60,549 bases of DNA. Source: a virus (lineage: Duplodnaviria > Caudoviricetes). The notes under the pieces were generated by a model that saw only the letters and a list, made by a program, of their open reading frames with translations, made no database searches and was not told the DNA's origin. The stretch lies in IMG/VR virus record IMGVR_UViG_3300044638_004051, positions 1-60,549 of that record. The stretch is one strand, 5' to 3'. The translations under genes and the position numbers were made by a program. Positions 8,001 to 42,889 of the stretch are shown here, piece after piece; positions within the stretch are counted from its first letter, which is position 1, and each line of letters begins with the position of its first letter.

Positions 8001-8264
8001 ATGTCCAGCGGCTACAACCAACCGTTCGACGCCACGACCATCAGCCGCATGAACCAGCCGCGACCGAAGGGGCCGGATGACGTTGTCGTTCACAACCCAT
8101 TCCAGATGCAGCTTGACGCCAATCCGGAGTTCGCCCGCCCGGCCAGCGGTGGCGGCAACATTCGCGACCTGATCAACAGGCTGCGGCAGCGACCGACGCA
8201 AATGGCACCGCCCCCCCAGCAGCAGGCTCCAGCCGAGCCGAAGTCCGTGCTGCGAAGGGAGTGA
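8001..8264 (+). CDS. Hypothetical protein
   Basis: AGGAG RBS; last gene of the + strand block. Confidence 0.6.
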   Translation: MSSGYNQPFDATTISRMNQPRPKGPDDVVVHNPFQMQLDANPEFARPASGGGNIRDLINRLRQRPTQMAPPPQQQAPAEPKSVLRRE

Positions 8265-8275
8265 TGCTCTATCTA

Positions 8276-9136
8276 TTACCGGATCGGCGGCGGGCCAGCC
8301 GGAACGTCGAACAGCGAGGCGTCTAGGTAGTGCCTGCCAGCCAGCATTGGATGACTGTGCTGAAGATAGCGAGTAGCTGCGCCGGGCTGATCTCGCTCGA
8401 CATAAGTCGCGCAGGATCGACGCAGCCATTTGCACGAACCGCCGAAGCCGTGCCTGTCAAGGAACGCCCGCCACGTCTTGATCGCCCTGCGCCGTGTCAG
8501 TGCCCACTGGAACAAGGTGCCATCGGGTGATCGCGATAGCAGTGCATTCACTGTTTCGTCTGTTGTGTCAGACATCTTCCTCACAAGTGCCTTGCCAGTC
8601 TTTCCCGCCGTGGTGCTGATGCAGCCATTTCGCACATTCTGGGCAGTCAGGCCAAGCACGTCACTGAATCGCAGACCTGTATCAAAAGCGATACCGATCC
8701 ATGCTGGCAGCACGTCGCACCTCCGCAAGGTGGACACTCCGCCAAGCAGAGTCTCGTCGCGTTCTGCCGCCTCTAGCATGCGGACCAGATCGAGCATCGA
8801 CCATGCCTGTGGCGGAGCCTGCTTGGCACGCACCTTCCTGATACGCACTGGAAGGGTTTCGGTCAGCCCTTCTTCAAATGCGTATCGCCACAACGTCAGC
8901 AGTTCTCTGCGGATATTGGATGCTGTTGTGGGTCCGACTGTTAGCGTTCCGATAAATCGGTTGACGCTTTCCGGTTGGAGTTGACAGATTTTTTCAAGCC
9001 CATTAGCTTTGGACTTCCGTACAGTTCGTCGCAAGGATTCGACGTATCGAGGACTGCATTCCCGTGAAGCAACATAGGCTTCAAGCAGTTCGTCAAGGTG
9101 CATCTCAACGGTGTGTATCAAGGAGGATTGAATCAT
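8276..9136 (-). CDS. int: Tyrosine recombinase / phage integrase
   Basis: DTGLRFSDV (R), KTGK (K), KWLRRSCAT (H-x-L-R box), LQHS...HY (catalytic Tyr); AAGGGGAG RBS before ATG 9136. Confidence 0.85.
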   Translation of the reverse strand: MIQSSLIHTVEMHLDELLEAYVASRECSPRYVESLRRTVRKSKANGLEKICQLQPESVNRFIGTLTVGPTTASNIRRELLTLWRYAFEEGLTETLPVRIRKVRAKQAPPQAWSMLDLVRMLEAAERDETLLGGVSTLRRCDVLPAWIGIAFDTGLRFSDVLGLTAQNVRNGCISTTAGKTGKALVRKMSDTTDETVNALLSRSPDGTLFQWALTRRRAIKTWRAFLDRHGFGGSCKWLRRSCATYVERDQPGAATRYLQHSHPMLAGRHYLDASLFDVPAGPPPIR

Positions 9137-9264
9137 CGGTGGCTCCCCTTTCTGCGGGCCACCTTGCCCCCAATTCGTAGCCCATATCCCTATGGACTCA
9201 ATAGCTCTAAACAAGAGCTAACTGCTTGCCCCCCCATGTAGAGGAAGGAGTTAATGGTTTCCTA

Positions 9265-10164
9265 ATGGTCAGGATAGAAAATCCTGACTGGACGCAGCAC
9301 CGGCTTCATAAGCCGGGTGTCGCCGGTTCAAGTCCGGCCGCTGCTATTCCAGTCACTGTTTCCTACGAGCCAGCGAAGGACTACCACCGCTGGCCCGAAA
9401 CATCATGCAGTCAGCTGAAGACCCTACGCGAGTCTTCACTTGAATTCTACTGGCGATACGAGGTAGGGGAAGCCCCGCCCAAAAGTAGTGCCAGCCTCGA
9501 CTACGGCACTTTGCTCCATACGTGGGCAGAGTTGGGCGACGAGGAATTCTGGCAGCGCGTCTCTGTTGCAGCGGACACTCTGGTAACCGCGACAGGGGCA
9601 TTCTCAAAGAAGGCGGACGAGTGGATCGCGTCACTCGATCCACGCCTGATCCCCATCTCCCCGGCTGATCGCGACAAGCTGCGTGCGCAAACTCGCGAAC
9701 TGCTCCGCAATCCCGAAGTGGCGGAGATCATCGAGCGGACAGTGGACCGCGAGTTCAATGTCCGCTGGCCGTGGAATGGCCACCCTGTCCGCGCTCGCTG
9801 CGACGGACGCACTGACGAGTTTCTCTTCGACTGGAAGACCACTCGCGATAAGTCGCCACAGAACACATGGTGGCGCAGTGCGATTGAATTCGGCTACCAC
9901 CTGCAATCCGCCATGTATGCGGAAGCAGGTGTGGCAATGGGCATGCCACTGCATCGCATGCGTTTCATTGTCACCAGCACTGTGTGGCCCCACGAATGCT
10001 TCGTGTGTGTGATGCCACAGAAGCTCATCGACATCGGTAAGGCGCATTGCGAGCGTCTGCTGGATGAACTGCAAACCCGCCGTGAGTGGGATTGCTGGCA
10101 CCGTCTGGACTCACAGGAGGTCTGTGAGTTGCGCGTCCCTGATTACGCCATGAAAGGAGCATGA
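9265..10164 (+). CDS. RecE-like PD-(D/E)XK exonuclease (DUF3799-like)
   Basis: YH...SCSQLK, GTLLH, RARCDG, FDWKTT, YHLQSAMY motifs. Confidence 0.85.
   Translation: MVRIENPDWTQHRLHKPGVAGSSPAAAIPVTVSYEPAKDYHRWPETSCSQLKTLRESSLEFYWRYEVGEAPPKSSASLDYGTLLHTWAELGDEEFWQRVSVAADTLVTATGAFSKKADEWIASLDPRLIPISPADRDKLRAQTRELLRNPEVAEIIERTVDREFNVRWPWNGHPVRARCDGRTDEFLFDWKTTRDKSPQNTWWRSAIEFGYHLQSAMYAEAGVAMGMPLHRMRFIVTSTVWPHECFVCVMPQKLIDIGKAHCERLLDELQTRREWDCWHRLDSQEVCELRVPDYAMKGA
9294..9346 (+). tRNA. Partial (D-arm-less) tRNA-Met(CAT)-like sequence; candidate attP core
   Basis: Anticodon arm CCGGC-TTCATAA-GCCGG (9300-9316), T arm GCCGG-TTCAAGT-CCGGC (9322-9338), acceptor 3' strand CGCTGCT+A; no D arm; ~160 bp from the integrase start. 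Confidence 0.7.
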
Positions 10165-10958
10165 TCATGCCGCAGATTGGTTCGTTCGTAACCCTCCTCT
10201 ATCGCGAGGAATCCCGCACCACTGGCGAGCTTATTGCCGCTGTGTGCAAGGCCCAGCTGGAGTTTGCCCCGATCACCCTCGATTGCGAGGGGCGTCGTGG
10301 TGGCGAGGCGTACAGGTATGCCTCGATCCAGTCGATTCGCCGTGGCATCCAGCATGCCATGTCTCGTCACGGCTTGCTGATCCATCACGTCTACGGCTTC
10401 TCCGATCAGGGGGAGCATGTGGTCACCGTGTTGCGTCACAGCAGTGGCGAGTACATCGCGTCCACCAGTCGTATCGCATTCCGCGAAGACGCGCAGGAGC
10501 AGAAGGCACTGAAGACGTTGCTGTGCCGCACGGCCATCGAAGGGCTGCTGGGCATCGTGACTGAAGAGGACGATGACGCGCAGTCAACCACGATTGAAGT
10601 GGACTCTGCCAACGTCAAGCAGCAGGCCAGCAATCTCGCCATGGCCAAGGCCGCGATCCTCTCCGCAGGCTCGCCTGCTGCATTGGAACGCTATGCCGAG
10701 TTGGCGAAGACCCGGCTGGCGGAGGGTGCGTTGTCGGTTGACGGCGCAGCGGAGATCGAGCGTTTGATCGAGGAACGGAAGAAGCACCAAAAGAAGGAGG
10801 TGGCCAGTGCTGACGGTAAAGGAACTGCTGGAGATCAAGGCACGGATGCTGCTCGCAGCGGAAGCGTGTCATCGGATAGTCGAGTCGCAGGGCGAGCCGC
10901 TGGAGTTGGACGCGGAGACGCACCTGCTGGTGTCAAGCGCGATGCACAGCCTGCGTGA
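10161..10958 (+). CDS. ERF-family ssDNA annealing protein
   Basis: KAQLEF...YRYASI...HGL...TVLRHSSGEYI; adjacent to the exonuclease. Confidence 0.8.
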   Translation: MIMPQIGSFVTLLYREESRTTGELIAAVCKAQLEFAPITLDCEGRRGGEAYRYASIQSIRRGIQHAMSRHGLLIHHVYGFSDQGEHVVTVLRHSSGEYIASTSRIAFREDAQEQKALKTLLCRTAIEGLLGIVTEEDDDAQSTTIEVDSANVKQQASNLAMAKAAILSAGSPAALERYAELAKTRLAEGALSVDGAAEIERLIEERKKHQKKEVASADGKGTAGDQGTDAARSGSVSSDSRVAGRAAGVGRGDAPAGVKRDAQPA

Positions 10959-11283
10959 GGACGCGCGGACTGTGCTTGCAGAAGTGGACATCCTGCGTGG
11001 GATGGCCACGGACTCGTTTGACCACATCTTCAAGGAGGAGACAGAGCATGGACGTTCTGGCTATGTGGCAAAGCCTCGACCACAAGAGGCTGTCGCTGGT
11101 GGCGATGGAGAACCAGCTGTCGCAGCAGCAGTTAGTGGCCCTGTTCGACCAAGCGGGGCTGACGGGGAGACAACCCGCCGACCCCGGGCCAAGCGAAATC
11201 GCCGCCGCAACAGCGGTGATTCGCAGCGAGTGGACTCCGCAGGTCGAGCAGAGCCGGTGGATAGCGGCACGGAAAACGCTTAG
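10807..11283 (+). CDS. Hypothetical protein
   Basis: AAGGAGG RBS before GTG; overlaps the ERF tail. Confidence 0.55.
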   Translation: MLTVKELLEIKARMLLAAEACHRIVESQGEPLELDAETHLLVSSAMHSLREDARTVLAEVDILRGMATDSFDHIFKEETEHGRSGYVAKPRPQEAVAGGDGEPAVAAAVSGPVRPSGADGETTRRPRAKRNRRRNSGDSQRVDSAGRAEPVDSGTENA

Positions 11284-11293
11284 TCACTTCTAG
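11048..11293 (+). CDS. Hypothetical protein (DPxPxEI...IRxxW motif)
   Basis: AAGGAGGAG RBS before ATG 11048. Confidence 0.6.
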   Translation: MDVLAMWQSLDHKRLSLVAMENQLSQQQLVALFDQAGLTGRQPADPGPSEIAAATAVIRSEWTPQVEQSRWIAARKTLSHF

Positions 11294-11307
11294 GGAGGGA
11301 TCGCAGG

Positions 11308-12882
11308 ATGCAAGGCTCACTTTTCACGGACGAATTCACGGAGGTTCGGACGGTTGTTCCCAAGCCATACCGTCCGCGTCCGTACCAGATCGAGGCTGCG
11401 GAACGTGCAGAGACTGCTCTTCAAACGGCAGACATGTGCGGCCTGTACCTCGCCACTGGCACGGGCAAAACGGAGATCGGAGCCTTGCTTGTGCAGCCTG
11501 TCAAGGATGACGGTGTGCTGTATATCGCCCCTCGCAGGGAGCTAGTTGTTCAGACGGCTGACCGACTAACCCTGCGAGGGGTGGACTGCGATATCGAGAT
11601 GGGAACGCGGCGCAGCTACAAGCCAGTCACTGTGGCTTGCTACCAAAGCCTTCAGAGCAACCGGAGGTTTGAGCGTTTCCTTGGAACGAAGAGGCGAGTG
11701 ATCGTTGACGAGAGCCATCTCAACTACAGCGAGGCAGCACTGAAGATGCTGGCTCAGTTTCGTTCGTGGGGTTCGCAGGTGATTGGCATGACTGCCTCCC
11801 CTCCCCACAAGAAGAACGTGGTGCTGGCCGATCACTTCGGTGAAGCCGCATATGTGTATGACTACCAGCAGGCGGCTGCTGATGCGTACCTCACCAACTG
11901 CAAGATGCACCTGTGCGTGCTGGAAGACCTCGACCTGACAGGCTTTCGTGCGACGTTTGGTGGCACGGACCCGGACTTCAATCCCACCCGCGTTGCCCGC
12001 CTGATGGAGAAGAAGGCTGTCGTTGCTGGGATATGCAACATGGTAGCGGAGTTCTGGGAGAACCAGCCCAGTGTGGTCTTCTGTGCCAGCATCGATCAGG
12101 CAGAGCTAGTGCGTGATGACCTGTGGAGCCGTGGCATCCAAGGCTCCATCGTCCACAGCAAGATGGACGATGACGAGCAGCGGCTGCACCTCAATGACTT
12201 CATGTCCGGCAAGTCGAACCTCGTTATCAACGTGGGCATCTTGACATTGGGGTGGGATGCCCCGCATGTCAGGAAACTTTTTATCGCGAGGCCGACCGCT
12301 TCCACCCAACTGTATACGCAGATTTTCGGGCGCGGCACCCGCTGCTTCCCGCCCGGTGTGATCGACGGCATCGACACTGTGGAGGGGCGGCTTGCTGCGA
12401 TAGCAGCCTCGCCAAAGCCCTTCTTTGAAGTGTTCGACATCACCGATGCGTCGAGGCACAACGATCTGAAGACGGCTCTCGACGTGATCCGGCCAAGCCT
12501 CGATGACCGCCTGATGAAGCGGATCAGGAACCGCACGCAGCGCGGCCCCATCGCACCCAAGGAACTCGATCCGATCATCATTGAGGAGAAGCGGGCACTC
12601 GCTGCCGAGCAGGCCGCTATCGACGCACTGGAGATGCGGAAGCGTGGCAATGTCCACGTCAGCGGTCAGGTGGTCGCCTACGAACGGGACACGTTCGCTG
12701 ATGCCGAGACCAACCACCGCAAGAAGGTTGTTGATTTTTGGTGGATGCCATACGGCCGCTTCAAGGGGAGGGGCTTCAAGGCCATCCACGCTGAAGCACC
12801 GTGGTATCTGCCGTCGGTGCTGCCCCATGTGAAGAACGAGGGGCTGGCTCGCAACATCCGCAAGTTTCTTTCGGCTCGTTAA
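11308..12882 (+). CDS. Superfamily 2 DNA helicase
   Basis: RPYQ, ATGTGKT, DESH, TASP, GWDAP, QIFGRGTR; C-terminal MPYGRFKG motif. Confidence 0.9.
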   Translation: MQGSLFTDEFTEVRTVVPKPYRPRPYQIEAAERAETALQTADMCGLYLATGTGKTEIGALLVQPVKDDGVLYIAPRRELVVQTADRLTLRGVDCDIEMGTRRSYKPVTVACYQSLQSNRRFERFLGTKRRVIVDESHLNYSEAALKMLAQFRSWGSQVIGMTASPPHKKNVVLADHFGEAAYVYDYQQAAADAYLTNCKMHLCVLEDLDLTGFRATFGGTDPDFNPTRVARLMEKKAVVAGICNMVAEFWENQPSVVFCASIDQAELVRDDLWSRGIQGSIVHSKMDDDEQRLHLNDFMSGKSNLVINVGILTLGWDAPHVRKLFIARPTASTQLYTQIFGRGTRCFPPGVIDGIDTVEGRLAAIAASPKPFFEVFDITDASRHNDLKTALDVIRPSLDDRLMKRIRNRTQRGPIAPKELDPIIIEEKRALAAEQAAIDALEMRKRGNVHVSGQVVAYERDTFADAETNHRKKVVDFWWMPYGRFKGRGFKAIHAEAPWYLPSVLPHVKNEGLARNIRKFLSAR

Positions 12883-12902
12883 TGGGGTAGCCACTGGCGC
12901 AC

Positions 12903-13895: not shown

Positions 13896-14449
13896 TGATC
13901 AACATCCACTCGCAACCGCTTGTCACAGTGCCCGACTTCATAGCGGACGGCTGTGCTGATCTGTGCAAAGACGGCTCAGAGATGCAGGGCATGTTCGATG
14001 ACATCGCGCATGGAGTCTACGACCGCATCGGCGTCGTGTCTTATGCGTGGATGGAATCAGATGGCGACATTCCAGACATCGTGGGCTGGGCCACTGTGAC
14101 CGAGTGGGAAGTGGGCGACGAGATCAGGGTCCAGCTACAGGTCGCTGTGTCTGAACCCTATCGGCGCAAGGGGTTGGCCACTGCGTTGTGCGTGTGCCTG
14201 ACCCATGACATGCCGCACTCGATCACCTCTTCTCGCCTGTGTGTGTTCAGTGATGAGGTGATGCGGATCGCACGGAAACTGGGATGGCATGCACGCCAAT
14301 ACAGATCGGTGGACGATGGCTGGATCGGAGTTGCAGAGACTGATGGGCGAGACATCGGAACCGGGCCTGACGAAGAACGACTACATGCTGATGCACCAGA
14401 GGTGCGCGGTGTGCCATTGGCCAGCGAGCAGGCCGGGGAGGAGACTTGA
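13895..14449 (+). CDS. GNAT-family acetyltransferase
   Basis: VAVSEPYRRKGLATAL matches acetyl-CoA binding motif A. Confidence 0.7.
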   Translation: MINIHSQPLVTVPDFIADGCADLCKDGSEMQGMFDDIAHGVYDRIGVVSYAWMESDGDIPDIVGWATVTEWEVGDEIRVQLQVAVSEPYRRKGLATALCVCLTHDMPHSITSSRLCVFSDEVMRIARKLGWHARQYRSVDDGWIGVAETDGRDIGTGPDEERLHADAPEVRGVPLASEQAGEET

Positions 14450-14735
14450 ACTGCATCACATCGTTGGCGGCAGCGGTCGCAAGGACGTGCCGGATGGCAG
14501 CAATTGGCTGTGCCTCTGCGGGCGATGCCATCATGCAGTACATGATCGGCTCCCCGGATATGGAGAGTTGCCGAAGGGAGCCATACTTCAGGCAAAAGCG
14601 GATGAGGACGGGCAGGTCGATGCTGCGAAGCTCGCGTCCCTCAAGCACCGCAAGGCGTTGCCCTACGATCAATGCCAGATACCCGATCAATTCCTAGCGG
14701 ACAGACACAGGAGGGGCGGAGACCCATGGCCATAA
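14343..14735 (+). CDS. HNH endonuclease
   Basis: CAVC...ELHHIVGG...NWLCLCGRCHHAVH. Confidence 0.8.
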   Translation: MGETSEPGLTKNDYMLMHQRCAVCHWPASRPGRRLELHHIVGGSGRKDVPDGSNWLCLCGRCHHAVHDRLPGYGELPKGAILQAKADEDGQVDAAKLASLKHRKALPYDQCQIPDQFLADRHRRGGDPWP

Positions 14736-18597: not shown

Positions 18598-19113
18598 ATG
18601 ACACGCCGCCTTACGCCCAAGCAACAGGCAGTCGCAGAGGCTGCGCTGCGATACGTTGCCCCGTCTATCGCCGTGTTCGTGCGCAGAAACCCAGACCTGC
18701 GTGCCACGATCAAGCGCGTCGATATGGACAGCGTTGCACAGATGGCGGTGTGCATGGCAGCGTTCACCTACAATCCGGCAAAGAGCCAGCCCACCACGTA
18801 CTTCGGGAGTGCGATCAGACACGCACTCTATCGGGCTGTGTTGAACCAGCAGAAGCTGGATGGGAGATACGTTCCGGTCGAGAAGATACTGGAACCACAG
18901 CCGCACATCGCCCGCACCCGGCAAGAGATGCGGGCGATGCGTGCGCTGCGGTCCCTGTCGGCGTATGACCGGACGCTATTGGAAGACAGGCTGATCGAGC
19001 AGGTCACGCTGGAGCAGCTGTCGGTGGAGCAGCACTGCGATCCTCGCACGATTAGCAAGCGAGTGAAGCAGGCGGTCGCAAAGCTACGCTCGATTGAGGG
19101 CGATCTGCCCTGA
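18598..19113 (+). CDS. Sigma-70-family RNA polymerase sigma factor
   Basis: Region 2-like DSVAQMAVCMAAFTYNPAK..PTTYFGSAIR; region 4 HTH LSAYDR...TLEQLS...RTISKRVKQAVAKLR. Confidence 0.75.
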   Translation: MTRRLTPKQQAVAEAALRYVAPSIAVFVRRNPDLRATIKRVDMDSVAQMAVCMAAFTYNPAKSQPTTYFGSAIRHALYRAVLNQQKLDGRYVPVEKILEPQPHIARTRQEMRAMRALRSLSAYDRTLLEDRLIEQVTLEQLSVEQHCDPRTISKRVKQAVAKLRSIEGDLP

Positions 19114-19878
19114 TGACCACAGCCGCTGGAAGTCCTTGCGGTTGGTGATCATGGGGTAGCCTGCCTGCCTCGCCCGCAATGCCCATCGCACGGTATCGGG
19201 TCCGGTGAATCGCCGGATTGTCTTGCCGGTGAACCGGCCCCGGTCCTCTTCGTGCATGAACCACAAGGCAATGTCATCGAGGGACTGGCCTTCGTCATGC
19301 TGGGTCTGCATGAAGTCGATGACGCCACGCTCGTACTCGTTCACACGGTACGCCTTCTGCTGGCGGGTGCCGACCTGCTTCCACCCCACTGGCGACGAGC
19401 GAGAGAACGGAAGCCCGCTCTCCCGCTTGACCTGATTGTCACGCTTCATCTTGCGTGAGACCATGCGTCTGTACATGTGGGCATAGAGAACCATGTTGCT
19501 CTCCAGCATGTCGTACAGTTCCGCATCACCGTCCAGCCCAGACAGATCGGGCAGGTCGAGGATCACACGCTTCACCCCCTTGCGATCCAGCTGGTCGAGC
19601 GTTACGAACCCGTCTGTCTTGTTGCGGAACAGACGGGACATGTCCGCCACGACAAGGTAGTCGCCCGGCTGAAGGGCGAAGTACACCTGCCGCCCGTCAG
19701 GTCGCTCCGAAAAGATCGAGCCGCCCGACTCTGCCGGATCATAGAAGAACCCGGCCCACTCCACCCCCTTCTTAGCAAGGTGGGTATCGTAATAGTCACG
19801 GCAGGTCTTCTCCTGTACCTCCCGTGTCATCCCCTGTTTGGCGGTCGAATGCCGACCGTAGGCGTAGCACTTAGGCAT
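19084..19878 (-). CDS. Serine recombinase (resolvase/invertase-type catalytic domain plus C-terminal extension)
   Basis: YGRHSTAKQ (catalytic Ser), ESGG...ERP, GDYLVVADMSRLFRN. Confidence 0.85.
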   Translation of the reverse strand: MPKCYAYGRHSTAKQGMTREVQEKTCRDYYDTHLAKKGVEWAGFFYDPAESGGSIFSERPDGRQVYFALQPGDYLVVADMSRLFRNKTDGFVTLDQLDRKGVKRVILDLPDLSGLDGDAELYDMLESNMVLYAHMYRRMVSRKMKRDNQVKRESGLPFSRSSPVGWKQVGTRQQKAYRVNEYERGVIDFMQTQHDEGQSLDDIALWFMHEEDRGRFTGKTIRRFTGPDTVRWALRARQAGYPMITNRKDFQRLWSSGQIALNRA

Positions 19879-20188
19879 TGGGGTCTTCTCCTTTCCGTGT
19901 CTTGCGAACACGATCCGCGATGGCTTCGTTGAACACAGTGTCCCAATACTTCTTATGCCACGCATCGAAAGCGGCGATCATCTGCGTGCGATTGCTGGGG
20001 TCAAGCTCCTCCCACATGTAGTCGAAACAGAACCGCTGCATCTTGTTGCGGAATACCCAGTAACAGTTGCCGCTCTGCGCAATGTAGAGCCACCCCTTTC
20101 CCTTGCCGGGCAACCGCCAGCGGTAGATCAACTCCTCAATCTCCCCATTGGGCAGTCGGTACACGATGCGTTCGTTCACCTTTCCCAT
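19871..20188 (-). CDS. Hypothetical protein
   Basis: Coupled ORF in the minus-strand operon. Confidence 0.6.
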   Translation of the reverse strand: MGKVNERIVYRLPNGEIEELIYRWRLPGKGKGWLYIAQSGNCYWVFRNKMQRFCFDYMWEELDPSNRTQMIAAFDAWHKKYWDTVFNEAIADRVRKTRKGEDPNA

Positions 20189-20718
20189 CAGGCCACCGCT
20201 CCTTTCTTCGCGTAGTATGCTTGCTTCTTCCGATACGCAGCCAGCTTGGTCTTCGCCAATGCGAGCTTGCGTTCCCACTCACGCACCTTCTCGTCCGCTT
20301 CTTCCGCCCGACGCTCGATCAGCGTCAGCGGTTTCTTGCGTTCATACCTTCGCTTGGGCGGGGGCATCTGGGCAAGTAGGTCATACTCCGCAGCATGCTG
20401 GCGGAGATCGTTGACCCAGTCTTTCTCAAACTTCCGCCGATGCTCGTCACTGGTGTAGCAATACTGCACTGCCATCAGCAGCAGCGAGGACACGTCCTTG
20501 TCGGCAAGCGACTTGTACGAATCCACCTTCCCGCTTGTGGCCAGCGTGGCGAACAAGCGGTCGAGTATCGGCCGTGTCATTAAGGAGCCGCCCCAGTACG
20601 CGGGGTCCATCCCGCGCTTGCGACAGCGATCAACGTGCCGTGCATATGCACGGTCGAGGGACTGCTTGAGTATCCGCAGAATGTTCTGTTGAACTTGAGT
20701 CAGTGGTGGCTTTGTCAT
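20188..20718 (-). CDS. Hypothetical protein with basic coiled-coil tail
   Basis: GGAG RBS; coupled to the next gene. Confidence 0.6.
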   Translation of the reverse strand: MTKPPLTQVQQNILRILKQSLDRAYARHVDRCRKRGMDPAYWGGSLMTRPILDRLFATLATSGKVDSYKSLADKDVSSLLLMAVQYCYTSDEHRRKFEKDWVNDLRQHAAEYDLLAQMPPPKRRYERKKPLTLIERRAEEADEKVREWERKLALAKTKLAAYRKKQAYYAKKGAVA

Positions 20719-20720
20719 GG

Positions 20721-20795
20721 TCAGTTCTCCGAACGACATGAAATGAGGGACATGAACACCAGAGCAGCGATGAATGTGACAAGGTCAACCGGCAT
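20721..20795 (-). CDS. 24-aa hydrophobic peptide (not in ORF track)
   Basis: AAGGAGG RBS; MPVDLVTFIAALVFMSLISCRSEN exactly fills the gap. Confidence 0.45.
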   Translation of the reverse strand: MPVDLVTFIAALVFMSLISCRSEN

Positions 20796-22035
20796 AGGTG
20801 GGCACCTCCTTCGTGAGGTCGATCACCTTCGCCCACGCTGGCGGAGTCGAGTAGCTGGACCGTCGCACCAAAGCGATGATCAGCCTCGCCCGTGTGCGGT
20901 GGGCAGGCCAGTCGGTTTCCCCGTCAGTGACCAGCACAATCGCATCGGGACGCTGCTCGCGATCCTCGTCCTCGATTGCCTTGGCCATGTCGGTTCCGCC
21001 GTAGCCCTTGAACTCCCACTGCGACAGCGATGTGATCCGCTTCGCATCTTGCAACCGGCTGTCGAATGCCACGACACGGGGGCGATGCACCTTGCGTAGA
21101 CCGTGGGCAATCACAGTCAACGCACGGCTCTCGGTCCCAGACATGGAGCCAGACGTGTCGATGATGATCGAACACTCCGGAGCCAGCCGCACCACGCCAC
21201 GCTTGCGTGGGGTATCGGCCTGCTGCCTGCGGTTCAAGCGACGGTAGGTGTATTCCTCCGTGCCGATAGGCGAGGCAACCGACTTGGATACCACCGTCCG
21301 CAACTGATCGAACGGATCAGGCTGCGGATGCAGCCGGGCCTTGAGCGACTTGACCACCTCCCCCGGGACTGACCCGGGAGAGGATGACTCCAGCTGCTCG
21401 ATCTTCTTCTCTGCCTCACGCAGGCAGTGATCCACCATCGCATGCTCGACCGCAGACACGGGCTTCTCATACGGGCGTGGCACACCGTCGCTGTTGCTGC
21501 CCGCCTTGGCTGGATCGAGCGGGTTGCCGCCGTCTTCCTGCGGTTGTTCCGGTGTGTGCTGGAACAACAACCCGTAATACTGCTCGACCGTCATGCCCCG
21601 CACCAGTCCGGGGATGGAGAGGTAAGCGGTCTTCGTATCAGGGATGCAGCCGTCGATACGCACGATGCCGGACGGTTCGTCCAGACCGTGGTGCCTATCG
21701 AGCAACTGCTGGACAACCAGATCGGCGGCGAGATTCCACACATACCGCTCTCGCTCTGTCGCCTGTGGCACCGCCGCCTTGAAGCGGCGGCAGTGCGACA
21801 GGACAACGTGCATAACCTCATGCAGTAGGCAGTACGCCACCTCCATCGGAGTGAGCGAAGACATGAACTGCTCGTTGCAATACAGACGGTTGGCCTGATC
21901 CACTGCCATAGTTGGTATGGCTGTGGTCTCCACCGTCCGCATCATCGAGAAGACGTGGGTGAGGTAAGGCACCCACGTCCGAAGCCGCAGCTTCGCCTTG
22001 GTCAGCAGTCGCTGAACTGTGGTGAGAGTCTTCAA
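20785..22035 (-). CDS. Metallopeptidase + VWA domain protein (DUF2201-like)
   Basis: HEVMH zinc motif, WNLAADL; MIDAS DTSGSM, GGT, TDG. Confidence 0.85.
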   Translation of the reverse strand: MKTLTTVQRLLTKAKLRLRTWVPYLTHVFSMMRTVETTAIPTMAVDQANRLYCNEQFMSSLTPMEVAYCLLHEVMHVVLSHCRRFKAAVPQATERERYVWNLAADLVVQQLLDRHHGLDEPSGIVRIDGCIPDTKTAYLSIPGLVRGMTVEQYYGLLFQHTPEQPQEDGGNPLDPAKAGSNSDGVPRPYEKPVSAVEHAMVDHCLREAEKKIEQLESSSPGSVPGEVVKSLKARLHPQPDPFDQLRTVVSKSVASPIGTEEYTYRRLNRRQQADTPRKRGVVRLAPECSIIIDTSGSMSGTESRALTVIAHGLRKVHRPRVVAFDSRLQDAKRITSLSQWEFKGYGGTDMAKAIEDEDREQRPDAIVLVTDGETDWPAHRTRARLIIALVRRSSYSTPPAWAKVIDLTKEVPTYAG

Positions 22036-23123
22036 GCGGCACCTCCGATCTGGGAAACGAGCTTGCCGTACCGGGACAGCAGGTTCTTGGGAACACGGTA
22101 ATCCTTGTAGGTGTTGGTGATCTCGTTGAGAACCGGGCCGACGCAGTCGAGCATCCCGTTCTCACCCATCTCGATCAGCACCTTGACCGCCCCGTCCATA
22201 CGCTTCGACGCATGGTCATCGGACAGCGTTTCCAGAATCCCGCACGGCAGGAAGACCAGCTGATCGACACGGTCACCCGTGTAATCGATGGTCGCCTTGC
22301 CATCCACCACTTCGGCCGGATCGTACAGGTCTTTCGCAGCGATGCTCTGCATCAACTGCCCGGCACCCGCACTACCGACCATGCCAGTCGCGATCTGATT
22401 GATCACGTCGCCGTCTGCCTTGACCTTGTCCGCACCGGCGAGGCACCGGGCAAGGTTCGTCCACTGACGCAGCGAGGGAAACGCCCGCTCGTCATCGGGG
22501 ATACGCTTGCATCCACGCAGGGCAGGCTGACGCTGGAGCAAGTAGCCGACACGCCGCGTCCACTTCGGAACGTACGACGAGTAGTCGCCCACAATCGGGA
22601 AGTTGGTGGGCAACTTGAACTGCCCGCCGTTAAGCATGCCCTCGATCCACGAATCGAATGGGATTTCCCAGTCGTGGTGGTACAGGCGGTTCAACATCGA
22701 CGGCTCCAGCGGGCTGGAGTTGGGCGCGAGTTCCGGCGGATTCGCAGCGGCCACCCGGATAGTGGACGGGTGGAGAACCAGATCACCCACCCTGCCCTCG
22801 TTCAGCAGGGACAGGAGAGCAGGTCGCATTGACTGCGGGGCAGTGGTCAACTCATCAAAGATGATGCCCCACCCCGGCTGGGTCATGCGAACCAGCCACT
22901 CCAGATGCACCATGCGTGCGATGCCAGACTTCTTGTCGATGTCCGGCATGCCGCCCACGTCTTCCGGCATGTGCTGCGAAGGGATGAAGACGAACGGCTT
23001 GAGTCCCATCGCACGGATGAGAGCCTCAAGAAACGCCGTCTTGCACTCGCCCGTCCCGCCCCAAGCAATGCCCGGGACACCGCACTGAATCGCAATAAAC
23101 AAAGCCGCATTCAAGCAATCCAT
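22032..23123 (-). CDS. MoxR-like AAA+ ATPase
   Basis: Walker A variant GGTGECKT, Walker B IIFDE, AANPP, LNR; adjacent to VWA gene. Confidence 0.85.
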   Translation of the reverse strand: MDCLNAALFIAIQCGVPGIAWGGTGECKTAFLEALIRAMGLKPFVFIPSQHMPEDVGGMPDIDKKSGIARMVHLEWLVRMTQPGWGIIFDELTTAPQSMRPALLSLLNEGRVGDLVLHPSTIRVAAANPPELAPNSSPLEPSMLNRLYHHDWEIPFDSWIEGMLNGGQFKLPTNFPIVGDYSSYVPKWTRRVGYLLQRQPALRGCKRIPDDERAFPSLRQWTNLARCLAGADKVKADGDVINQIATGMVGSAGAGQLMQSIAAKDLYDPAEVVDGKATIDYTGDRVDQLVFLPCGILETLSDDHASKRMDGAVKVLIEMGENGMLDCVGPVLNEITNTYKDYRVPKNLLSRYGKLVSQIGGAA

Positions 23124-23182
23124 GATTGCAAACCTTTCAAGAAAAAATGAAACCCACCTAGCCACGGTGGGCAATCGAACAA

Positions 23183-24079
23183 TCAACCAGCGAAAGCCTT
23201 GAGTGCTTCCGCCCCGATCTTTTCGCGAGCAACCTGCGCTGCCTTCGCAACACGGGTGAACGCCTTGCCAAGCAGGGACTTGTTCGCCTGCATGGTTTCT
23301 TCAGCAGCGATCCACTGTTCCAGCCGCGTCTGCTGCCCGTTGCTGCGTGGCTTGGCACCACGTTGACGCATGTCTTCCGCGTCCTCGATCATGCCGTTGA
23401 ACACGGCCATGCTGCGCCGCTCCAACTCGCCACACACATGGGTGATCAACTCGCGGTTGACCACGGGCTGGAACCGCACGGTCTGCATGACCACGCCATG
23501 CCCAGACAGGGCAGAAGCCACGGTCTCGTACGCCGTGACAGAATCGGTGGGCATGTACCACACCACGCCTTCGTCACGCAGGAGAAACCCGTGCGATGCC
23601 TTGACCAGACCAGAGATAGCGTTGGTCAAGTCGTTGGCCGACACGAACTCGCACTGTTCACGCCAGCAGGCATCAGCCAGCTGGTTGATGGAGTTGCGGT
23701 GCTTCGCAATGGTGGGGCAGGACTTGCTCTCGATGTCGAGAATCTCGACGGCATAGCTGCCATCGTTCTGGCGCAGCACACCGAGCGAGAACAGGAACGG
23801 CAGGTCATTGCGTGTCTCGCCCACGATGAACCGCCTGACCTCGCACCCCACGGCATCCGACCGCCCGGCCAGACCCATGTACTTCACCTTGCCCCAGTCC
23901 GCCTCGCCGTGCGATGCGACGATCTCGCCAGCCGCACGATGCAGGGCACCGTAGTGATCGACCTTGGGCAGGAGATGCGTCATCCCCACCGTGTCGAACG
24001 CCTTCTCCGCCACGCCACGGGGAACACGCTTGCTCCCCCAGAACACGATCAAATGGTCACTCGTCAACTGCTTCGTCAT
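23183..24079 (-). CDS. Conserved partner of the AAA/VWA pair (DUF6744/DUF3150-like)
   Basis: LRDEGVVWYMP resembles the GGVYFVP motif; AAGGAG RBS; first gene of the triad. Confidence 0.5.
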   Translation of the reverse strand: MTKQLTSDHLIVFWGSKRVPRGVAEKAFDTVGMTHLLPKVDHYGALHRAAGEIVASHGEADWGKVKYMGLAGRSDAVGCEVRRFIVGETRNDLPFLFSLGVLRQNDGSYAVEILDIESKSCPTIAKHRNSINQLADACWREQCEFVSANDLTNAISGLVKASHGFLLRDEGVVWYMPTDSVTAYETVASALSGHGVVMQTVRFQPVVNRELITHVCGELERRSMAVFNGMIEDAEDMRQRGAKPRSNGQQTRLEQWIAAEETMQANKSLLGKAFTRVAKAAQVAREKIGAEALKAFAG

Positions 24080-25809: not shown

Positions 25810-25984
25810 CAGCCCTGACGCTACGCCCTGCGTGAGTTCGGGCTAACGCTTCAACCGCGCTGACCTGACTGTCGTAGTCATTCGTTCATTGCACGGAATG
25901 AGAAGCCGCCGCTGCCCGGGGGGTGGAAGGGGTGGGGTAGCCAGCCGCTTGTGCTGGTGGGCATCTCAACAAGGAGACAGTGCA
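25810..25984 (+). repeat. Intergenic module copy 1 (box A, hairpins, G-box, RBS)
   Basis: CAGCCCTGACGCTACG at 25810; GGGGGGTGGAAGGGGTGGGG at 25918; CAACAAGGAG. Confidence 0.8.
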
Positions 25985-26764
25985 ATGGCTCGTCCGAATG
26001 GTGTGGTTCTCTACCGTGGCTATGGGTTTGACGGCACTCCCATCGTGGCAATCGCGGTGTTCGGTGAAAGCTCCAACTCCAAAACCGGGGGAATGATTCA
26101 AGTCCACATCCTGTGCGACAACGGTCAATCCCCTGTCGAGGCAGTGGTATCCGACGCAGACACTGCCATCTGTGATGGGTGCGTGTTGAAGGGCATCGCG
26201 TGGAAACTGCGTGGGTGCTACGTCAACGTGGCGACTGGTCCCGGTGCAGTCTGGCGGTGCTACATCGACGGCGGCTACCCGGACTACCAGCGTGCCGTGC
26301 ATGACGAGTATTTCGTGGGACGTGAGATCAGATGGGGTGCATATGGCGAGCCAGTGCTGATCCCACTGTCGATCATCTCGCACATCTGCGACCTGTCGAA
26401 CGGATGGTCTGGCTACACGCACCAGTGGCGGAAGGCTCGATACCGTCCGTATCGCCGGTACTTCATGGCGAGTACGCACACCATCGAGGACTGCCGGGAA
26501 GCCGTGAGTCTGGGATGGCGGTTCTTCAAGTCCGCCAACCAGCACACTGCCGAGGACATTGCCGCATTGCAGGCGATCACCCCCTGTTTCAACTGCCCCG
26601 CCAGTAAGGAACAAGGCCATCGGTTGCAGTGCTACCAGTGTCTGGCATGCAACGGACTTGAAACCCTGTCGGCCAACTACGCACAGCGTGCGTCAGTGTG
26701 GATCGACACGCACGGTGGGCTGGGCGTGATGCACACGTCGAAGCATCTGCCAATTCTCAACTGA
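25985..26764 (+). CDS. Cys-rich conserved phage protein (gp88-like / radical-SAM-derived family)
   Basis: SNSKTG, CDGC...CYV, RWGAYGEP, GYTHQW, CPAS...CYQCLAC. Confidence 0.6.
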   Translation: MARPNGVVLYRGYGFDGTPIVAIAVFGESSNSKTGGMIQVHILCDNGQSPVEAVVSDADTAICDGCVLKGIAWKLRGCYVNVATGPGAVWRCYIDGGYPDYQRAVHDEYFVGREIRWGAYGEPVLIPLSIISHICDLSNGWSGYTHQWRKARYRPYRRYFMASTHTIEDCREAVSLGWRFFKSANQHTAEDIAALQAITPCFNCPASKEQGHRLQCYQCLACNGLETLSANYAQRASVWIDTHGGLGVMHTSKHLPILN

Positions 26765-31773: not shown

Positions 31774-32145
31774 ATGGGCGGCACGGCCACAATCGAAGAA
31801 CTGCAACGGTACGTGTGGGAGTTGCTGCCCACGCGGAAGCTCGCGATTGACCGCGAAATCGCTAACGACGCGATCATCGTTGCCGTACAGTGCTGGCCTG
31901 TCGAGGTACTGTCGCAGGCCGCAGTGGGATCGCAGGAGTGCGTGCAGGCGTTGAACTCGCTTGTCAATGACATCCGCCGCATGCTGTCCTGCATCTACGG
32001 TGCCGACCGCTTCATGGCTTACTGGACTGTTGGGTTGCGCACCCTGATACCGAATGCGGTCGAGATCATCTACGACTGGTGGAGAAGGCGGAAAGACAAC
32101 CGGGCCAAGATCATTACGTGGCGAAGGAAGTGGGTGGTTGAATGA
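31774..32145 (+). CDS. Hypothetical protein
   Basis: ORF ATGA-coupled to the next gene. Confidence 0.6.
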   Translation: MGGTATIEELQRYVWELLPTRKLAIDREIANDAIIVAVQCWPVEVLSQAAVGSQECVQALNSLVNDIRRMLSCIYGADRFMAYWTVGLRTLIPNAVEIIYDWWRRRKDNRAKIITWRRKWVVE

Positions 32146-34901
32146 GCGAACTAGCACGAAAGCTAATCCGTGCATACCACGGTAGCCCGCACAGCTTTGA
32201 CAGGTTTGACGCCAGCAAGATCGGGTCTGGTGAGGGTGCGCAAGCATACGGGCACGGGCTGTATTTTGCTGGTAACGAAGACATCGCGAGGTATTACCGC
32301 GACAAGCTGTCACCTGCTGGCGAGCCAAATGTAGAGGTTGGCGGCAAGCCAGTAGAGGGAGGCGGGCAACTGGGATTTGAGGCTGTATTTGGATACCCGC
32401 AAGCAGACGGCGCGCCTTTTCTGGCAGCAGACCCGTGGGCCGGGATTCCCACAAGAGACAAAGCAATTCGATTTCTCAAGATGGGCGCATTCGGAGGGGA
32501 TGACATACCAACAGAACGAGCATTCGACACGGCAAGGGGCTTGATATGGTCGCCGGAAATCAACGGCGGAAATCCTGCGCCGGAATACGAGCAGTCGCTC
32601 TTGCGCGAACTAGACAGGCTGCAAGCAGAAGGCGCACAGCTAGCATGGCCGCAGTCTGGGCACATGTACGAAGTTGCGCTAGACACAGACCCAGATCAGC
32701 TGATTAAGGGCGATCTTCCTGTGAAGTGGCAAACACCTCAAGTGCAGGAAGCGTTAAAGGAGTTGGGTTACAGGACAAGCAACGGGCGAGGCGAGCGCGG
32801 TGGCTTGCAGGCGTACAACAACGTAGTCACTAAGGCGGAAAACAAATTTGCGACCGAGGGCGCGATGCCTAGGGATATCGCGGCGGCATCGCGTATGGCG
32901 AAAGATTCCGTAACCAGAGACATGGTGGACATGGGAATAAACGGAATCCAGTATTTGGACAACACATCGCGCCGCAAGGGCTATGGCTCCAGCAACTACG
33001 TGATGTTTCCCGGCACGGAAGAAATGATCCGCATCATTCGCAAATACGGTTTTGTTCCACCGGCATTGGCCGCAGCAGGTGCAGCAGGTCAGGCGCAGGC
33101 CGGATCAGACCTCGACGCTGCGATGAAGGGCATGCGTCAGGCAAATGCCACGGGACGAGCCGCTGCCGCAAACGGAGCCAACCCGAGAGAAGCCAACGCT
33201 GCCGCTCTGGCGAGCTTCGTGCCAGAGTCCACCCGCAGCGGCCAGCCTCTGTCGCAGTACCTTGGCAGTTTGTCGGAGCAAGACGCTGCCATGACGCCGC
33301 GTGGCATGTACGCCACGGCAGTGCAGGACTCGATGACCGCCCCTGTCATATCCGTGTCGGCAGCGGCGCAGGTGCTGGGCGACAAATCCGTTTCGGATCG
33401 TTATCAGGGTGGATATCTAAGCCCAATGGATTTTGCTCGCGAGCAGAGCCTGCAAGAGTCGCGTGCGCTGTTTGAGCAGCGAAAGGCGGCAGGCCCGTTC
33501 CCTCCCGGTGCAGAAGAGGCGTTCGTCCAGTGGTCGCAGCAGCAGGCCGACAGGCGAGCCGACAGTGTCGCGGGTGTGCTGGCTGGTACGTACGCGACAC
33601 GGAACCCGGCAATCAACCAAACCGCTGGTCAGCTGCGGCAGCTTGTGGCCATGCACACCCCCAATCAAGAGTTCGCACAGTTTGGCGGCAGGACAGCGGC
33701 CGAGGACAAGCAGGCCCGGCAGCAGTACGGCTCTGATGCGGAATGGCGGCTTACGGAAGGCGGGCAGAAGAACTACGACGCACAGCGTGTGGCGGAGTTG
33801 TGGTCCGCTACGCAGGATGACTACACCCCTGCTAGCACCATGTCGCAGGTCGCAAGAGCAGTTGGTGGCGGCGTAACAAAGGCATACGACGCCATGGTTC
33901 CCGGCAGCATTCCCAAGGCTGGGCAGGCATGGAAAGAAATGGGGATGATCAACCAGCCGGACGGGAAGTACGAATATGCTGCACGTCTGTATGACCGAGG
34001 TGCGCAGCACCCGGGCAACGTCTACACGGCAGAAGGCTTGCCGAAGTACGGCACGGTAGACCCAACCACGGCGGCTGGGCTTGGAAACGCCACGGCTCTC
34101 AACCAGTCCTTCCCTCTAGCGGCGTGGTATCAGCAGGTCGGCGCGCCGATCCGTGAGGTAGCCAACTGGATGGGCAACGACCGCGAGTACGGTGACCCGA
34201 ACATGGTCCGCAACCTGCGTGAGCTTCGGGCCGGATTTAATCGCGTGACCCCGGTTGTCCCTGACGGCGTGGACCCGCAGGCGTTCCAGACGATGGGCCA
34301 GAAGCTGTCCGGTGCAGACCAACGCTTGTCAGGATGGACATCGGCGTATGGTGGCCCCGCATTTGCCGACGCTTACAACGCCACGTTGGGCAAGGTCACA
34401 GGCCAGATGGATCGCACGTACCTGTCGCCTTTTGCCCAGACAATGGCGGAAATCCCGGCGGAGATCGTGGGCGACCCTGTCAACGCCGCATTCAACGTCG
34501 TTCTCCCGGTGGCCAGCGGAATAAAGGGAGCCATAACCGGCGGCATAGCTGGCGGCGCACGGCAGGCCGCGATGCAGGGCGGCGGCTCTCTGATTCGGAA
34601 GCTGGCATCTGCGCCCAAGCGTTCGCTCGATGACATCATCGAGGAGAACGTCGAGGGGCTAGGTTTTGGCAGTGCCGTTGCTGGCATCCAGTCCTACTTC
34701 TCTCCAGAGAAAAAGAACCTCCTGATGGGAGAGGCGGACCCGAATGACCCGGGGTATGACAAGAAGCTGGAAGAGGCATCAGTGCAGGCACGCACTGAAC
34801 AGATGGATGCGGCGCGGGAGTACGGTGACGCGGTTGGCCGCAAGTCACCGAAGCCAACCCTGAAGACGCCAATGCCGCAGACGTTCATGCTGACTCGATA
34901 A
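32142..34901 (+). CDS. Putative virion protein with N-terminal ADP-ribosyltransferase-like (polyvalent-protein) domain
   Basis: AYHGSPHSFDRFDASKIGSGEGAQAYGHGLYFA...GIQYLD...NYVMF. Confidence 0.7.
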   Translation: MSELARKLIRAYHGSPHSFDRFDASKIGSGEGAQAYGHGLYFAGNEDIARYYRDKLSPAGEPNVEVGGKPVEGGGQLGFEAVFGYPQADGAPFLAADPWAGIPTRDKAIRFLKMGAFGGDDIPTERAFDTARGLIWSPEINGGNPAPEYEQSLLRELDRLQAEGAQLAWPQSGHMYEVALDTDPDQLIKGDLPVKWQTPQVQEALKELGYRTSNGRGERGGLQAYNNVVTKAENKFATEGAMPRDIAAASRMAKDSVTRDMVDMGINGIQYLDNTSRRKGYGSSNYVMFPGTEEMIRIIRKYGFVPPALAAAGAAGQAQAGSDLDAAMKGMRQANATGRAAAANGANPREANAAALASFVPESTRSGQPLSQYLGSLSEQDAAMTPRGMYATAVQDSMTAPVISVSAAAQVLGDKSVSDRYQGGYLSPMDFAREQSLQESRALFEQRKAAGPFPPGAEEAFVQWSQQQADRRADSVAGVLAGTYATRNPAINQTAGQLRQLVAMHTPNQEFAQFGGRTAAEDKQARQQYGSDAEWRLTEGGQKNYDAQRVAELWSATQDDYTPASTMSQVARAVGGGVTKAYDAMVPGSIPKAGQAWKEMGMINQPDGKYEYAARLYDRGAQHPGNVYTAEGLPKYGTVDPTTAAGLGNATALNQSFPLAAWYQQVGAPIREVANWMGNDREYGDPNMVRNLRELRAGFNRVTPVVPDGVDPQAFQTMGQKLSGADQRLSGWTSAYGGPAFADAYNATLGKVTGQMDRTYLSPFAQTMAEIPAEIVGDPVNAAFNVVLPVASGIKGAITGGIAGGARQAAMQGGGSLIRKLASAPKRSLDDIIEENVEGLGFGSAVAGIQSYFSPEKKNLLMGEADPNDPGYDKKLEEASVQARTEQMDAAREYGDAVGRKSPKPTLKTPMPQTFMLTR

Positions 34902-40083: not shown

Positions 40084-40387
40084 ATGGAAAATGCCGCAGC
40101 CAAAGATTGGCGACATCGTGCTGTTCAGCAAGGACTACCAGACTTTTGCCAATCCTGTCGTGGGATTCGTGATGAAAGAACCGGGTGCTTCGACCATAAG
40201 CATCCTGACGTTCACGCCGACCGGGTATTCGATGGTGTACGACAGTTGCCATCATCGGGACGATCCGGCCTTGCAACACGATCACGGGTGGCAGGACTTG
40301 GGAGCGTGGGATTTTGCCCCATCGACCCTGACCATCCGCGAGTTAACAGCGGAGCCAACCAGTGGCCGAAAGTCTTCCAAGCAGTAA
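40073..40387 (+). CDS. Hypothetical protein
   Basis: GGAGG RBS before GTG; PKIGDIVLF motif. Confidence 0.6.
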   Translation: MITEWKMPQPKIGDIVLFSKDYQTFANPVVGFVMKEPGASTISILTFTPTGYSMVYDSCHHRDDPALQHDHGWQDLGAWDFAPSTLTIRELTAEPTSGRKSSKQ

Positions 40388-42383: not shown

Positions 42384-42889
42384 TGCCGACACGCGAGCAG
42401 AAGCGCAAGCACAACCTCTGGACCCGCTACCGGGTTACTCCGGAGGAATACGACGCCTTGCACGCTCGATGTTCTGGGCAGTGCCAGATATGCGGCTGCA
42501 CATCGGGAAGACTGTGTGTTGATCATTGCCACGACACACACAAAGTGCGTGGTTTGTTGTGCAGTACGTGTAACCGGGCAATAGGTCTGCTGGGTGACAC
42601 TGCTGAAGACTTGAAGCGAGCTTGGGAGTACCTCGATGGACAGCGACGATCTTCCGTGGGACATCAAGGCGGCGGCACCAGACGTGCAGTCGCACTATCG
42701 AAGAATGATCGTGGCGGGCGTGCAGCCTCGCGCGGCAGAGATGTTCGCTCTCCAGCAGCCGCCCGGCGTGAAGGGCACCGACAGAACCCTGATGCAGGGC
42801 CGATACAACAACGAGCAGTTCGACCAGATGCCGCCCGATCAGGCAAAGAAAATGCTTGCCGACGCCAGAAAGGCCGGAATCAACCCTAG
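42383..42889 (+). CDS. Endonuclease VII-family (homing) endonuclease
   Basis: CQIC...LCVDHCH...VRGLLCSTCNRAIGLLGD. Confidence 0.85.
   Translation: MPTREQKRKHNLWTRYRVTPEEYDALHARCSGQCQICGCTSGRLCVDHCHDTHKVRGLLCSTCNRAIGLLGDTAEDLKRAWEYLDGQRRSSVGHQGGGTRRAVALSKNDRGGRAASRGRDVRSPAAARREGHRQNPDAGPIQQRAVRPDAARSGKENACRRQKGRNQP

Follow-up and report, generated by a model that had tools for sequence, protein, structure and literature searches.

The window analysed here is the whole of the IMG/VR virus record IMGVR_UViG_3300044638_004051 (Duplodnaviria; Caudoviricetes), a stretch of 60,549 bp with a G+C content of ∼59%, which CheckV rates as 100% complete. The + strand holds most of its genes, and few of their families are recognizable. 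The stretch was present in 24 lake or freshwater DNA sequencing runs, and no RNA run is listed among the runs that hold it. When positions 8200-12900 were compared with the GenBank phage collection by blastn in its distant mode, no match was obtained. This report concerns the region in which a tyrosine integrase gene and a RecE-like exonuclease gene diverge, and in which the 5' end of the exonuclease open reading frame (ORF) contains a fragment of a bacterial tRNA-Met gene, the candidate phage attachment site (attP). The features of the locus are the following:

8276..9136, minus strand: tyrosine integrase of 286 amino acids (aa), divergent from the exonuclease gene (phrog_1, PF00589)
9137..9264, no strand: intergenic region (P arm), with the Shine-Dalgarno-like sequence AGGAAGGAG at 9242-9250 ahead of ATG 9265
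9265..10164, + strand: RecE-like PD-(D/E)XK exonuclease ORF of 299 aa (DUF3799, PDDEXK_1, phrog_412, 3h4r)
9268..9288, no strand: perfect inverted repeat GTCAGGAT-N5-ATCCTGAC, directly 3' of the start codon (also inverted repeat I11)
9296..9346, + strand: attP core, the 3' part of a host tRNA-Met(CAU) gene (Rfam, exact 39-mer, ARAGORN at the hosts, alignment A1)
10161..10958, + strand: ERF-type single-strand annealing protein (PF04404, E 1.3e-8; phrog_2324)
11308..12882, + strand: superfamily 2 (SF2; ResIII/DEAD) helicase, the third recognized gene of the operon (PF04851, E 1e-15; PF00271; phrog_16, E 7.9e-54)

The exonuclease ORF matched DUF3799 (PF12684) with E 1e-9 (39 bits against a cut-off of 26), PDDEXK_1 (PF12705) with E 9.5e-9 (36 bits, cut-off 22) and phrog_412 'exonuclease VIII' with E 4.7e-41. 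Its residues 38-261 also matched RecE in the PDB (3h4r, E 8.5e-7), and the protein was placed in the RecE/DUF3799 group on a profile score above cut-off together with a solved RecE nuclease relative. Residues D180, D189 and K191, which we take to belong to the catalytic motif, are invariant in the exonuclease alignment (A4). The ATG of the ERF gene overlaps the exonuclease stop codon (ATGA). The integrase, whose 286 aa agree with the short integrase of the original prediction, matched phrog_1 'integrase' (E 1.8e-16) and, slightly below the cut-off of 27.1 bits, PF00589 (26.7 bits, E 5.6e-6); a PDB sequence search with it returned nothing significant. From the end of its gene to the core is 160 bp, the adjacency of a tRNA-targeting int/attP module of the lambda paradigm.

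Alignment A1, which comprises 22 sequences, was used to delimit the core. Positions 9296-9346 form a 51-bp block of identity with host tRNA genes, extending to 9348 in some hosts, and take in the end of the D stem, the anticodon arm, the variable loop, the T arm, the 3' strand of the acceptor stem and the discriminator A. The block ends at this discriminator (9346), and CCA is absent from the encoded core. No complete tRNA was found in the window by ARAGORN, and the Rfam tRNA model matched 9294-9338 with 24.1 bits (E 0.051), under its gathering score, as the fragment has no D arm. Exact copies of the 39-mer at 9300-9338 were found in 102 stretches of the species-level genome collection; among the 80 of these that are listed, 78 bear names of the Planctomycetota lineage, the others being L014 ('bacterium') and L044 (a 'Chitinophaga' metagenome-assembled genome, MAG). 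ARAGORN called a tRNA-Met(cat) gene at the match in 44 of the 46 loci scanned; the label tRNA-Met is that of ARAGORN, the CAU anticodon alone being also compatible with tRNA-Ile2. The host tRNA-Met genes that match the core lie in Pirellulales/Planctomycetota MAGs. The original prediction had named the tRNA-Met fragment as a candidate attP and had proposed a search for a near-identical host tRNA; with a core identical over its whole length to the 3' part of the tRNA genes of planctomycetes, and with an integrase beside it, this part of the prediction was confirmed. The candidate of a chance tRNA-like hairpin or of a phage-encoded tRNA was rejected, as the window holds no complete tRNA and the junctions of relatives, described below, show an att core.

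The core was also followed in Logan contigs of four lake runs. The contigs break at 9296 and at 9346-9349. The core is a high-copy repeat: its depth was 100-500 against 4-7 in the flanks, and among the loose contig ends are sequence of the host D arm and flanks from downstream in hosts. No contig of these runs bridges the core, and no junction could be assigned to the window phage; the breaks and the depth fit a shared repeat and are uninformative on the integration of the window phage itself.

Within the exonuclease ORF, the core occupies codons 11-28 of 299 and is translated as HRLHKPGVAGSSPAAA (residues 12-27). The ORF has an alternative start, TTG 9226, upstream of ATG 9265. According to a codon-by-codon reading, the first in-frame ATG, GTG or TTG after ATG 9265 is TTG 9511 at codon 83, which lies past the invariant Y40, S49, L51 and G81 of alignment A4. 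Both the location of the fragment inside the coding 5' end of the exonuclease gene and the lack of an in-frame start ahead of the conserved motif, as claimed in the original prediction, were thus found to be correct. The matches of the exonuclease start 3' of the fragment (phrog_412 at residue 32, 3h4r at residue 38 and DUF3799 at residue 47), and in an AlphaFold model built with 19 homologues (mean predicted local distance difference test, pLDDT, 86.2) residues 1-27 scored below 50 and the fold began at about residue 31 (∼9355). Residues 1-27 are predicted to be a disordered leader that holds the tRNA-coded peptide, and outside the tRNA-coded part this leader is hypervariable. The predicted disorder, together with matches that begin only after the fragment, suggests that the tRNA-coded stretch lies in an unstructured leader tolerated by the enzyme.

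Several inverted repeats were observed in and around this region. The repeat GTCAGGAT-N5-ATCCTGAC was matched once in the window, where 0.03 matches were expected, and arms of the form GTCAGG...CCTGAC stand at the same place in L119, L120, L121 and L139 (alignment A3, by eye); in the P arm, it may be bound by a protein or form an RNA hairpin. On the minus strand, in the integrase leader (9139-9165), the inverted repeat GGTGGC...GCCACC brackets the ribosome-binding site (RBS) GGGGAG and touches the ATG. The clade L124-L138 has a hairpin over the integrase RBS at the same place, with different and seemingly compensating arms (A3, by eye), and this hairpin may serve the translational control of the integrase. 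Just 3' of the core, at 9366-9397, a hairpin CGAGCCAGCG/CGCTGGCCCG lies within the codons of the conserved PA..YH.W motif; its arms in L118 and L122 match with changes on both sides, in a comparison by eye of three sequences only. An 18-nt imperfect inverted repeat (9275-9292 and 9348-9365, 78% complementary) brackets the tRNA core. In the RNA fold, GCAGC (9294-9298) pairs with GCTGC of the acceptor strand, which gives the shape of a mini-tRNA without a D arm (z −4.7 for 9230-9400).

To place the layout among relatives, viral contigs were scanned with several queries. The single exonuclease protein returned no relative, and the exonuclease alignment returned 22 loci in IMG/VR with 34-63% identity, of which 16 were examined; the six others had the same match statistics as the examined ones. 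In all 16, the first canonical start of the ORF is located upstream of the fragment, through which the ORF remains open, in the same frame as in the window in 15 loci and in the other open frame in L122 (flank extents and in-frame starts were judged by visual inspection of alignments and ORF lists). An RBS-like sequence stands ahead of the upstream start in the window, L070, L011 and L118. The left flanks of the viral relatives are unrelated to the 5' half of the host tRNA, which identifies the viral loci as attP forms. A frame-blind scan with the 39-mer gave 19 viral contigs, 18 of which belong to the exonuclease-relative set and carry the fragment within the exonuclease ORF. The exception, L145 (3134-3172), has the fragment after structural-type genes and before host-like DNA, and neither an integrase nor an exonuclease was found to adjoin it; it appears to be the prophage/host junction of another phage type that uses the same tRNA.

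The integrase is adjacent and divergent in five of five viral records, with 33-58% identity to that of the window. A scan based on the integrase, and thus free of any bias towards the tRNA-coded peptide, gave five loci (three already known), in each of which the exonuclease ORF includes a tRNA fragment. The two new loci, L160 and L161, whose integrases are 48-50% identical to the window's, carry a fragment of tRNA-Gly(CCC) at the same position of the exonuclease ORF. This fragment of 48 nt is 100% identical to Pirellulales tRNA-Gly(ccc) genes; it was matched in 368 of 401 genomes, and ARAGORN called a tRNA-Gly at all three loci checked. The position of attP in the 5' end of the exonuclease gene has thus survived a change of target. 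ARAGORN, when run on 23 viral loci, called nothing in 19 and gave four atypical calls on non-host 5' halves. These 'tRNA-Met' calls fall on the left arms of L121, L127, L131 and L132, whose 5' halves are not of the host type. Several attP left arms resemble degenerate tRNA 5' halves (L128, for example); these may be traces of the past capture of an entire tRNA gene, the 5' half of which later degenerated into coding sequence.

Integrated relatives were then sought in host genomes. In two of the 46 loci scanned, L070 (genome G001) and L011 (genome G002), the fragment lacks a full tRNA. To its left lies an integrase of ∼290 aa, 54% identical to that of the window (the same value holds for the one beside the L011 junction), and GAGGAG with GTG (L070) or TTG (L011) stands 8 codons ahead of the core, in the frame of the window's exonuclease. 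The host DNA to its right and the flank of an unoccupied tRNA in L062 agree at all but 1 of 54 bases. Judged by their sequence, L070 and L011 are right attachment junctions (attR). On another contig of G001 (C39), an exonuclease homologue (44% identity) lies directly behind a complete tRNA-Met, followed by ERF-like and helicase genes (ERF homologue 31% identical, E 1e-15). The T arm and the 3' acceptor strand of this tRNA are unlike the host type kept at attR, and the G001 left (attL) and right junctions have only a 20-bp anticodon stem-loop in common. Such a hybrid tRNA is the structure expected of a crossover in the anticodon arm.

The search for attL junctions was extended to 401 genomes of the same order and yielded two more, G274:C71 and G368:C389, with exonucleases 43-49% identical to the window's; two distant exonucleases in these genomes had no tRNA nearby. 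In G001, G274 and G368, the attL tRNA is called as a full tRNA-Met and is in frame with the exonuclease body. An in-frame TAG at tRNA positions 8-10, in the D-arm region, closes the exonuclease frame in all three, and the first canonical start after it is 178 (G001), 97 (G274) or 169 (G368) codons on. Hybrid junctions were thus obtained on both sides in G001, as attR in G002 and as attL in G274 and G368; no integrase was found in G274 or G368, and attR is missing for these MAGs. As the original prediction had suggested looking for, prophage relatives are integrated at this very point.

Some further features of these junctions were observed. Beside attR, integrase paralogues with 55% and 51% identity to that of the window stand as a tandem pair (L070, 5-2125; L011, 1600-3666), which may reflect tandem or nested elements. 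The attL tRNA-Met of G368 (L111, 1487-1562) has a C-C mismatch in the T stem (CCGCC for CCGGC), which could be an assembly error or the mark of a damaged hybrid tRNA. In L110 (1409-1432), a hairpin ∼95 nt 5' of an occupied tRNA-Met has 13 nt in common with the anticodon/variable region of the tRNA and could be a chance terminator or an att-site relic. Prophages of the G001/G368 type carry the following hairpin (−31.7 kcal/mol, z −3.6), which lies within ∼10 nt of the 3' end of the tRNA and may insulate the operon from tRNA read-through:

L104 1585-1614 and L111 ∼1570-1600: 12-bp GC-rich hairpin in the exonuclease leader, starting ∼8 nt past the tRNA 3' end

Based on these observations, the window is probably the genome of a temperate planctomycete phage in which the attP core lies between the start and the body of the exonuclease gene and in which expression of the recombination/replication operon would be gated by excision. 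The hosts would be freshwater planctomycetes of the Pirellulales type. The window integrase would most likely recombine the 51-bp core of attP (9296-9346) with the bacterial attachment site (attB), the sequence-identical 3' part of the host tRNA-Met(CAU) gene, probably in the anticodon stem-loop. For the window phage we infer a crossover in the anticodon loop TTCATAA (9305-9311), because attL and attR of G001 share only the anticodon stem-loop. Integration would linearize the phage within the exonuclease gene, between the start (RBS 9242-9250, ATG 9265) and the folded domain. The native promoter or promoters of the operon must lie in 9137..9264; the whole native upstream sequence is to the left of the core. 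At attR, the promoter region, the RBS, the ATG and the first ∼11 codons would remain beside the integrase and face host DNA. At attL, the exonuclease body, the ERF and helicase genes and the genes that follow would stand directly behind the rebuilt tRNA-Met, with the frame closed by the TAG of the D-arm region and with no canonical start after it.

Because integration at the core would separate promoter, RBS and start from the body, the full-length exonuclease and transcription from the native promoter would be available only from the unintegrated genome, either just injected or just excised. During tRNA maturation, processing at the 3' end severs the downstream RNA. RNA initiated at the tRNA promoter would be cleaved at the 3' end of the tRNA and would meet no start codon. 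The integration-controlled switch of the original prediction stands in its physical part, as the junctions of relatives have the gene split and the operon parted from its promoter, RBS and start; its regulatory part, with the operon silent in lysogens, is plausible. The layout has been kept in two frames and with two tRNAs, which argues for selection. A bolder version, which we put forward only tentatively, is a topological lysogeny device: throughout the clade, the operon would be expressible only from the circular genome, integration would silence it, excision would be the obligatory first step of induction, and the arrangement would be selected and would partly replace control by a repressor. 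As a part of that tentative version, tRNA processing and the in-frame tRNA stop would seal the operon from the host tRNA promoter.

The original prediction had also reported that no CI-like repressor was recognized. This was still so after a Pfam search for helix-turn-helix or CI-like repressors in 72 ORFs (E ≤ 0.01) and 22 small ORFs (E ≤ 1), whose sole yield was a weak Sigma70_r4 match at 18598-19113; as the genome consists mostly of hypothetical proteins, this absence may be read only as 'none recognized'. Four observations contrary to the proposal had been named beforehand (no near-identical host tRNA, prophages integrated elsewhere, an exonuclease start downstream of 9346 and a repressor among the hypothetical proteins); each was checked, and none of them refuted it.

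A number of points weigh against excision gating. A repressor may be hidden among the hypothetical proteins and would make the split of the gene redundant. The gating may be leaky: the ERF gene has a second ATG at 10167 behind a GGAG of its own, and in the window's version the attL operon would sit behind the tRNA promoter with no recognized terminator. A consensus scan of 8900-9500 gave neither a sigma-70-type promoter nor a terminator, although planctomycete promoters may differ. In the frame used by L122, a GTG codon falls within the core, and in L134, L137 and L160 a TTG follows the fragment in frame at a short distance (both by eye). The patterns used in the alignment scan came from the tRNA-coded peptide, so that '16 of 16' is not an unbiased frequency. 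An integrated copy of the exact window phage was not found, either in the metagenome scan with the exonuclease or in the Logan contigs, and attL of G001 is on a different MAG contig from attR, so that their assignment to a single prophage is inferred.

The same anatomy might instead be a neutral by-product, with attP in a dispensable disordered leader, at a compact junction of the two divergent genes, and with lysogeny controlled by an unrecognized repressor. The leader is indeed predicted to be unstructured and varies freely outside the tRNA-coded part; most genes are unannotated and a repressor could be missed; and the fixed tRNA sequence would leave no space for an RBS ahead of a start placed right behind the core, so that the layout could be frozen rather than selected. 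Under neutrality, however, some lineages should have lost the layout, for instance by gaining an RBS and a start 3' of the core, whereas it persists over 34-63% exonuclease identity, two frames and the switch from tRNA-Met to tRNA-Gly. We regard the by-product as rather unlikely, and a selected excision-gated switch as the plausible reading.

An effect of the opposite sign, in which the host tRNA-Met promoter drives the ERF gene, the helicase gene and the downstream genes in lysogens as a form of lysogenic conversion, is improbable. It could draw on a conserved GGGTATATTT ∼20 bp upstream of the host tRNA, on the fact that, in the window, no terminator is recognized in the stretch from the tRNA end to the exonuclease body, and on the ERF gene's own GGAG and ATG, but the hairpin of G001/G368-type prophages looks like insulation against read-through, and 3' processing of the tRNA would be expected to sever the downstream RNA. 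Least probable is that the fragment is a 5' untranslated region and that the exonuclease starts at a non-canonical codon past 9346, such as ATT 9346-9348, integration removing only the promoter: profile and RecE matches do begin 3' of the fragment, and the window and some relatives have ATT as the codon whose first base is the discriminator A, but in most relatives it is ACT or AGT, which are not starts, all 16 ORFs examined start upstream and stay open across the fragment, two frames being used, RBS-like sequences precede these starts in the four loci given above, and the fixed tRNA sequence would give a start after the core no RBS.

Excision gating by a split early gene was compared with known systems. 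The mycobacteriophages BPs, Brujita and Charlie carry attP within the repressor gene, and integration removes the 3' end with its degradation tag, which yields an active, stable repressor. As in this type, attP of the window lies within a phage ORF beside a tyrosine integrase, and integration would alter the product and excision restore it. Unlike in this type, the split gene is a RecE-like exonuclease that heads a recombination operon and not a repressor; the part lost is the 5' end with promoter, RBS and start and not a C-terminal degradation tag; and the att core is derived from a tRNA and translated. The analogy to BPs drawn in the original prediction thus holds for the attP in a gene and is otherwise loose, with SSV1 and Tn916/ICEclc the closer cases. 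For the mycobacteriophages, the term 'integration-dependent immunity' is in use in PMC4929511.

In structure, the closest case is the split integrase of the SSV1 type. In these 'suicidal' archaeal integrases, as described in PMC8371274, the tRNA-derived att is translated in the ORF, integration fragments the ORF, and its C-terminal part lands behind the tRNA gene and its promoter. The window shares the translated tRNA-derived att but differs in having a bacterial host (Planctomycetota) and an intact integrase ORF (8276-9136), with the core outside it at 9296-9346 and a recombination gene split in its place. In function, the closest case is Tn916/ICEclc, for which PMC5812530 has excision joining the ends, so that an end promoter (Pcirc) drives genes at the other end in the circular form only; full expression from the circular form is what is proposed for the window. 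Compared with these conjugative elements, which form a transcription fusion only, the window phage would also part the start codon and leader from the body. Porf7 of Tn916 and Pcirc of ICEclc face outward from one end; in the window the topology would require such a promoter to the left of the core, where the sigma-70 scan gave none, and the planctomycete consensus may differ.

In the inovirus XacF1, according to PMC5666396, attP (dif-like) lies inside ORF12, which is split on XerC/D-mediated integration. The window resembles it in that a phage ORF holds attP and would be split in the lysogen. XacF1, as far as described there, is filamentous, uses host XerCD/dif, has a putative regulator split and involves no tRNA, whereas the window phage is tailed and its att is tRNA-derived. 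In sib retroregulation of lambda and in intP/intX of Mx8, the position of attP alters integrase expression through mRNA stability or a changed 3' end. Here too the position of attP relative to a gene would make expression differ between the integrated and the free form, but it is the early recombination/replication operon that would be affected and not the integrase gene.

Genes split by an element's own att site (integrases, repressors and one inovirus regulator) and expression from the circular form only (conjugative elements) are already known. Full-text searches of a collection with few subscription journals gave no account of a phage with attP within an exonuclease gene or another gene of the early operon, or of planctomycete phages so arranged. 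If the reading is true, the window would be, within the literature searched, the first tailed phage with attP inside the first gene of the recombination/replication operon, and the layout, conserved in at least 20 uncultivated phages with two tRNA targets, would be a simple way to couple early gene expression to excision. The core predicts the host as planctomycetes of the Pirellulales type, for which few phages are known. For annotation, the locus teaches that tRNA-derived DNA can be real coding sequence.

Elsewhere in the window, a few other features were recognized:

within 19084-24079, minus strand: small serine recombinase of 293 aa (Resolvase domain, E 2.4e-16; phrog_95/125)
within 19084-24079, minus strand: DUF2201 metallopeptidase/VWA protein and then a MoxR-like AAA ATPase, behind the serine recombinase
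14289-14735, 32142-34901, 40362-44440 and 42383-42889: HNH endonuclease, a 919-aa protein (weak ART-PolyVal match), weak SU10-like portal and adaptor matches, and endonuclease VII

The serine recombinase is the second recombinase of the genome besides the tyrosine integrase. For 25886-26620, the ESM Atlas held nothing usable. The last ORF (60012-60548) encodes an fn3-domain protein and runs past the 3' end of the record; as the record is given as 'linear, 100% complete' yet ends inside this gene, it resembles a circularly permuted assembly.

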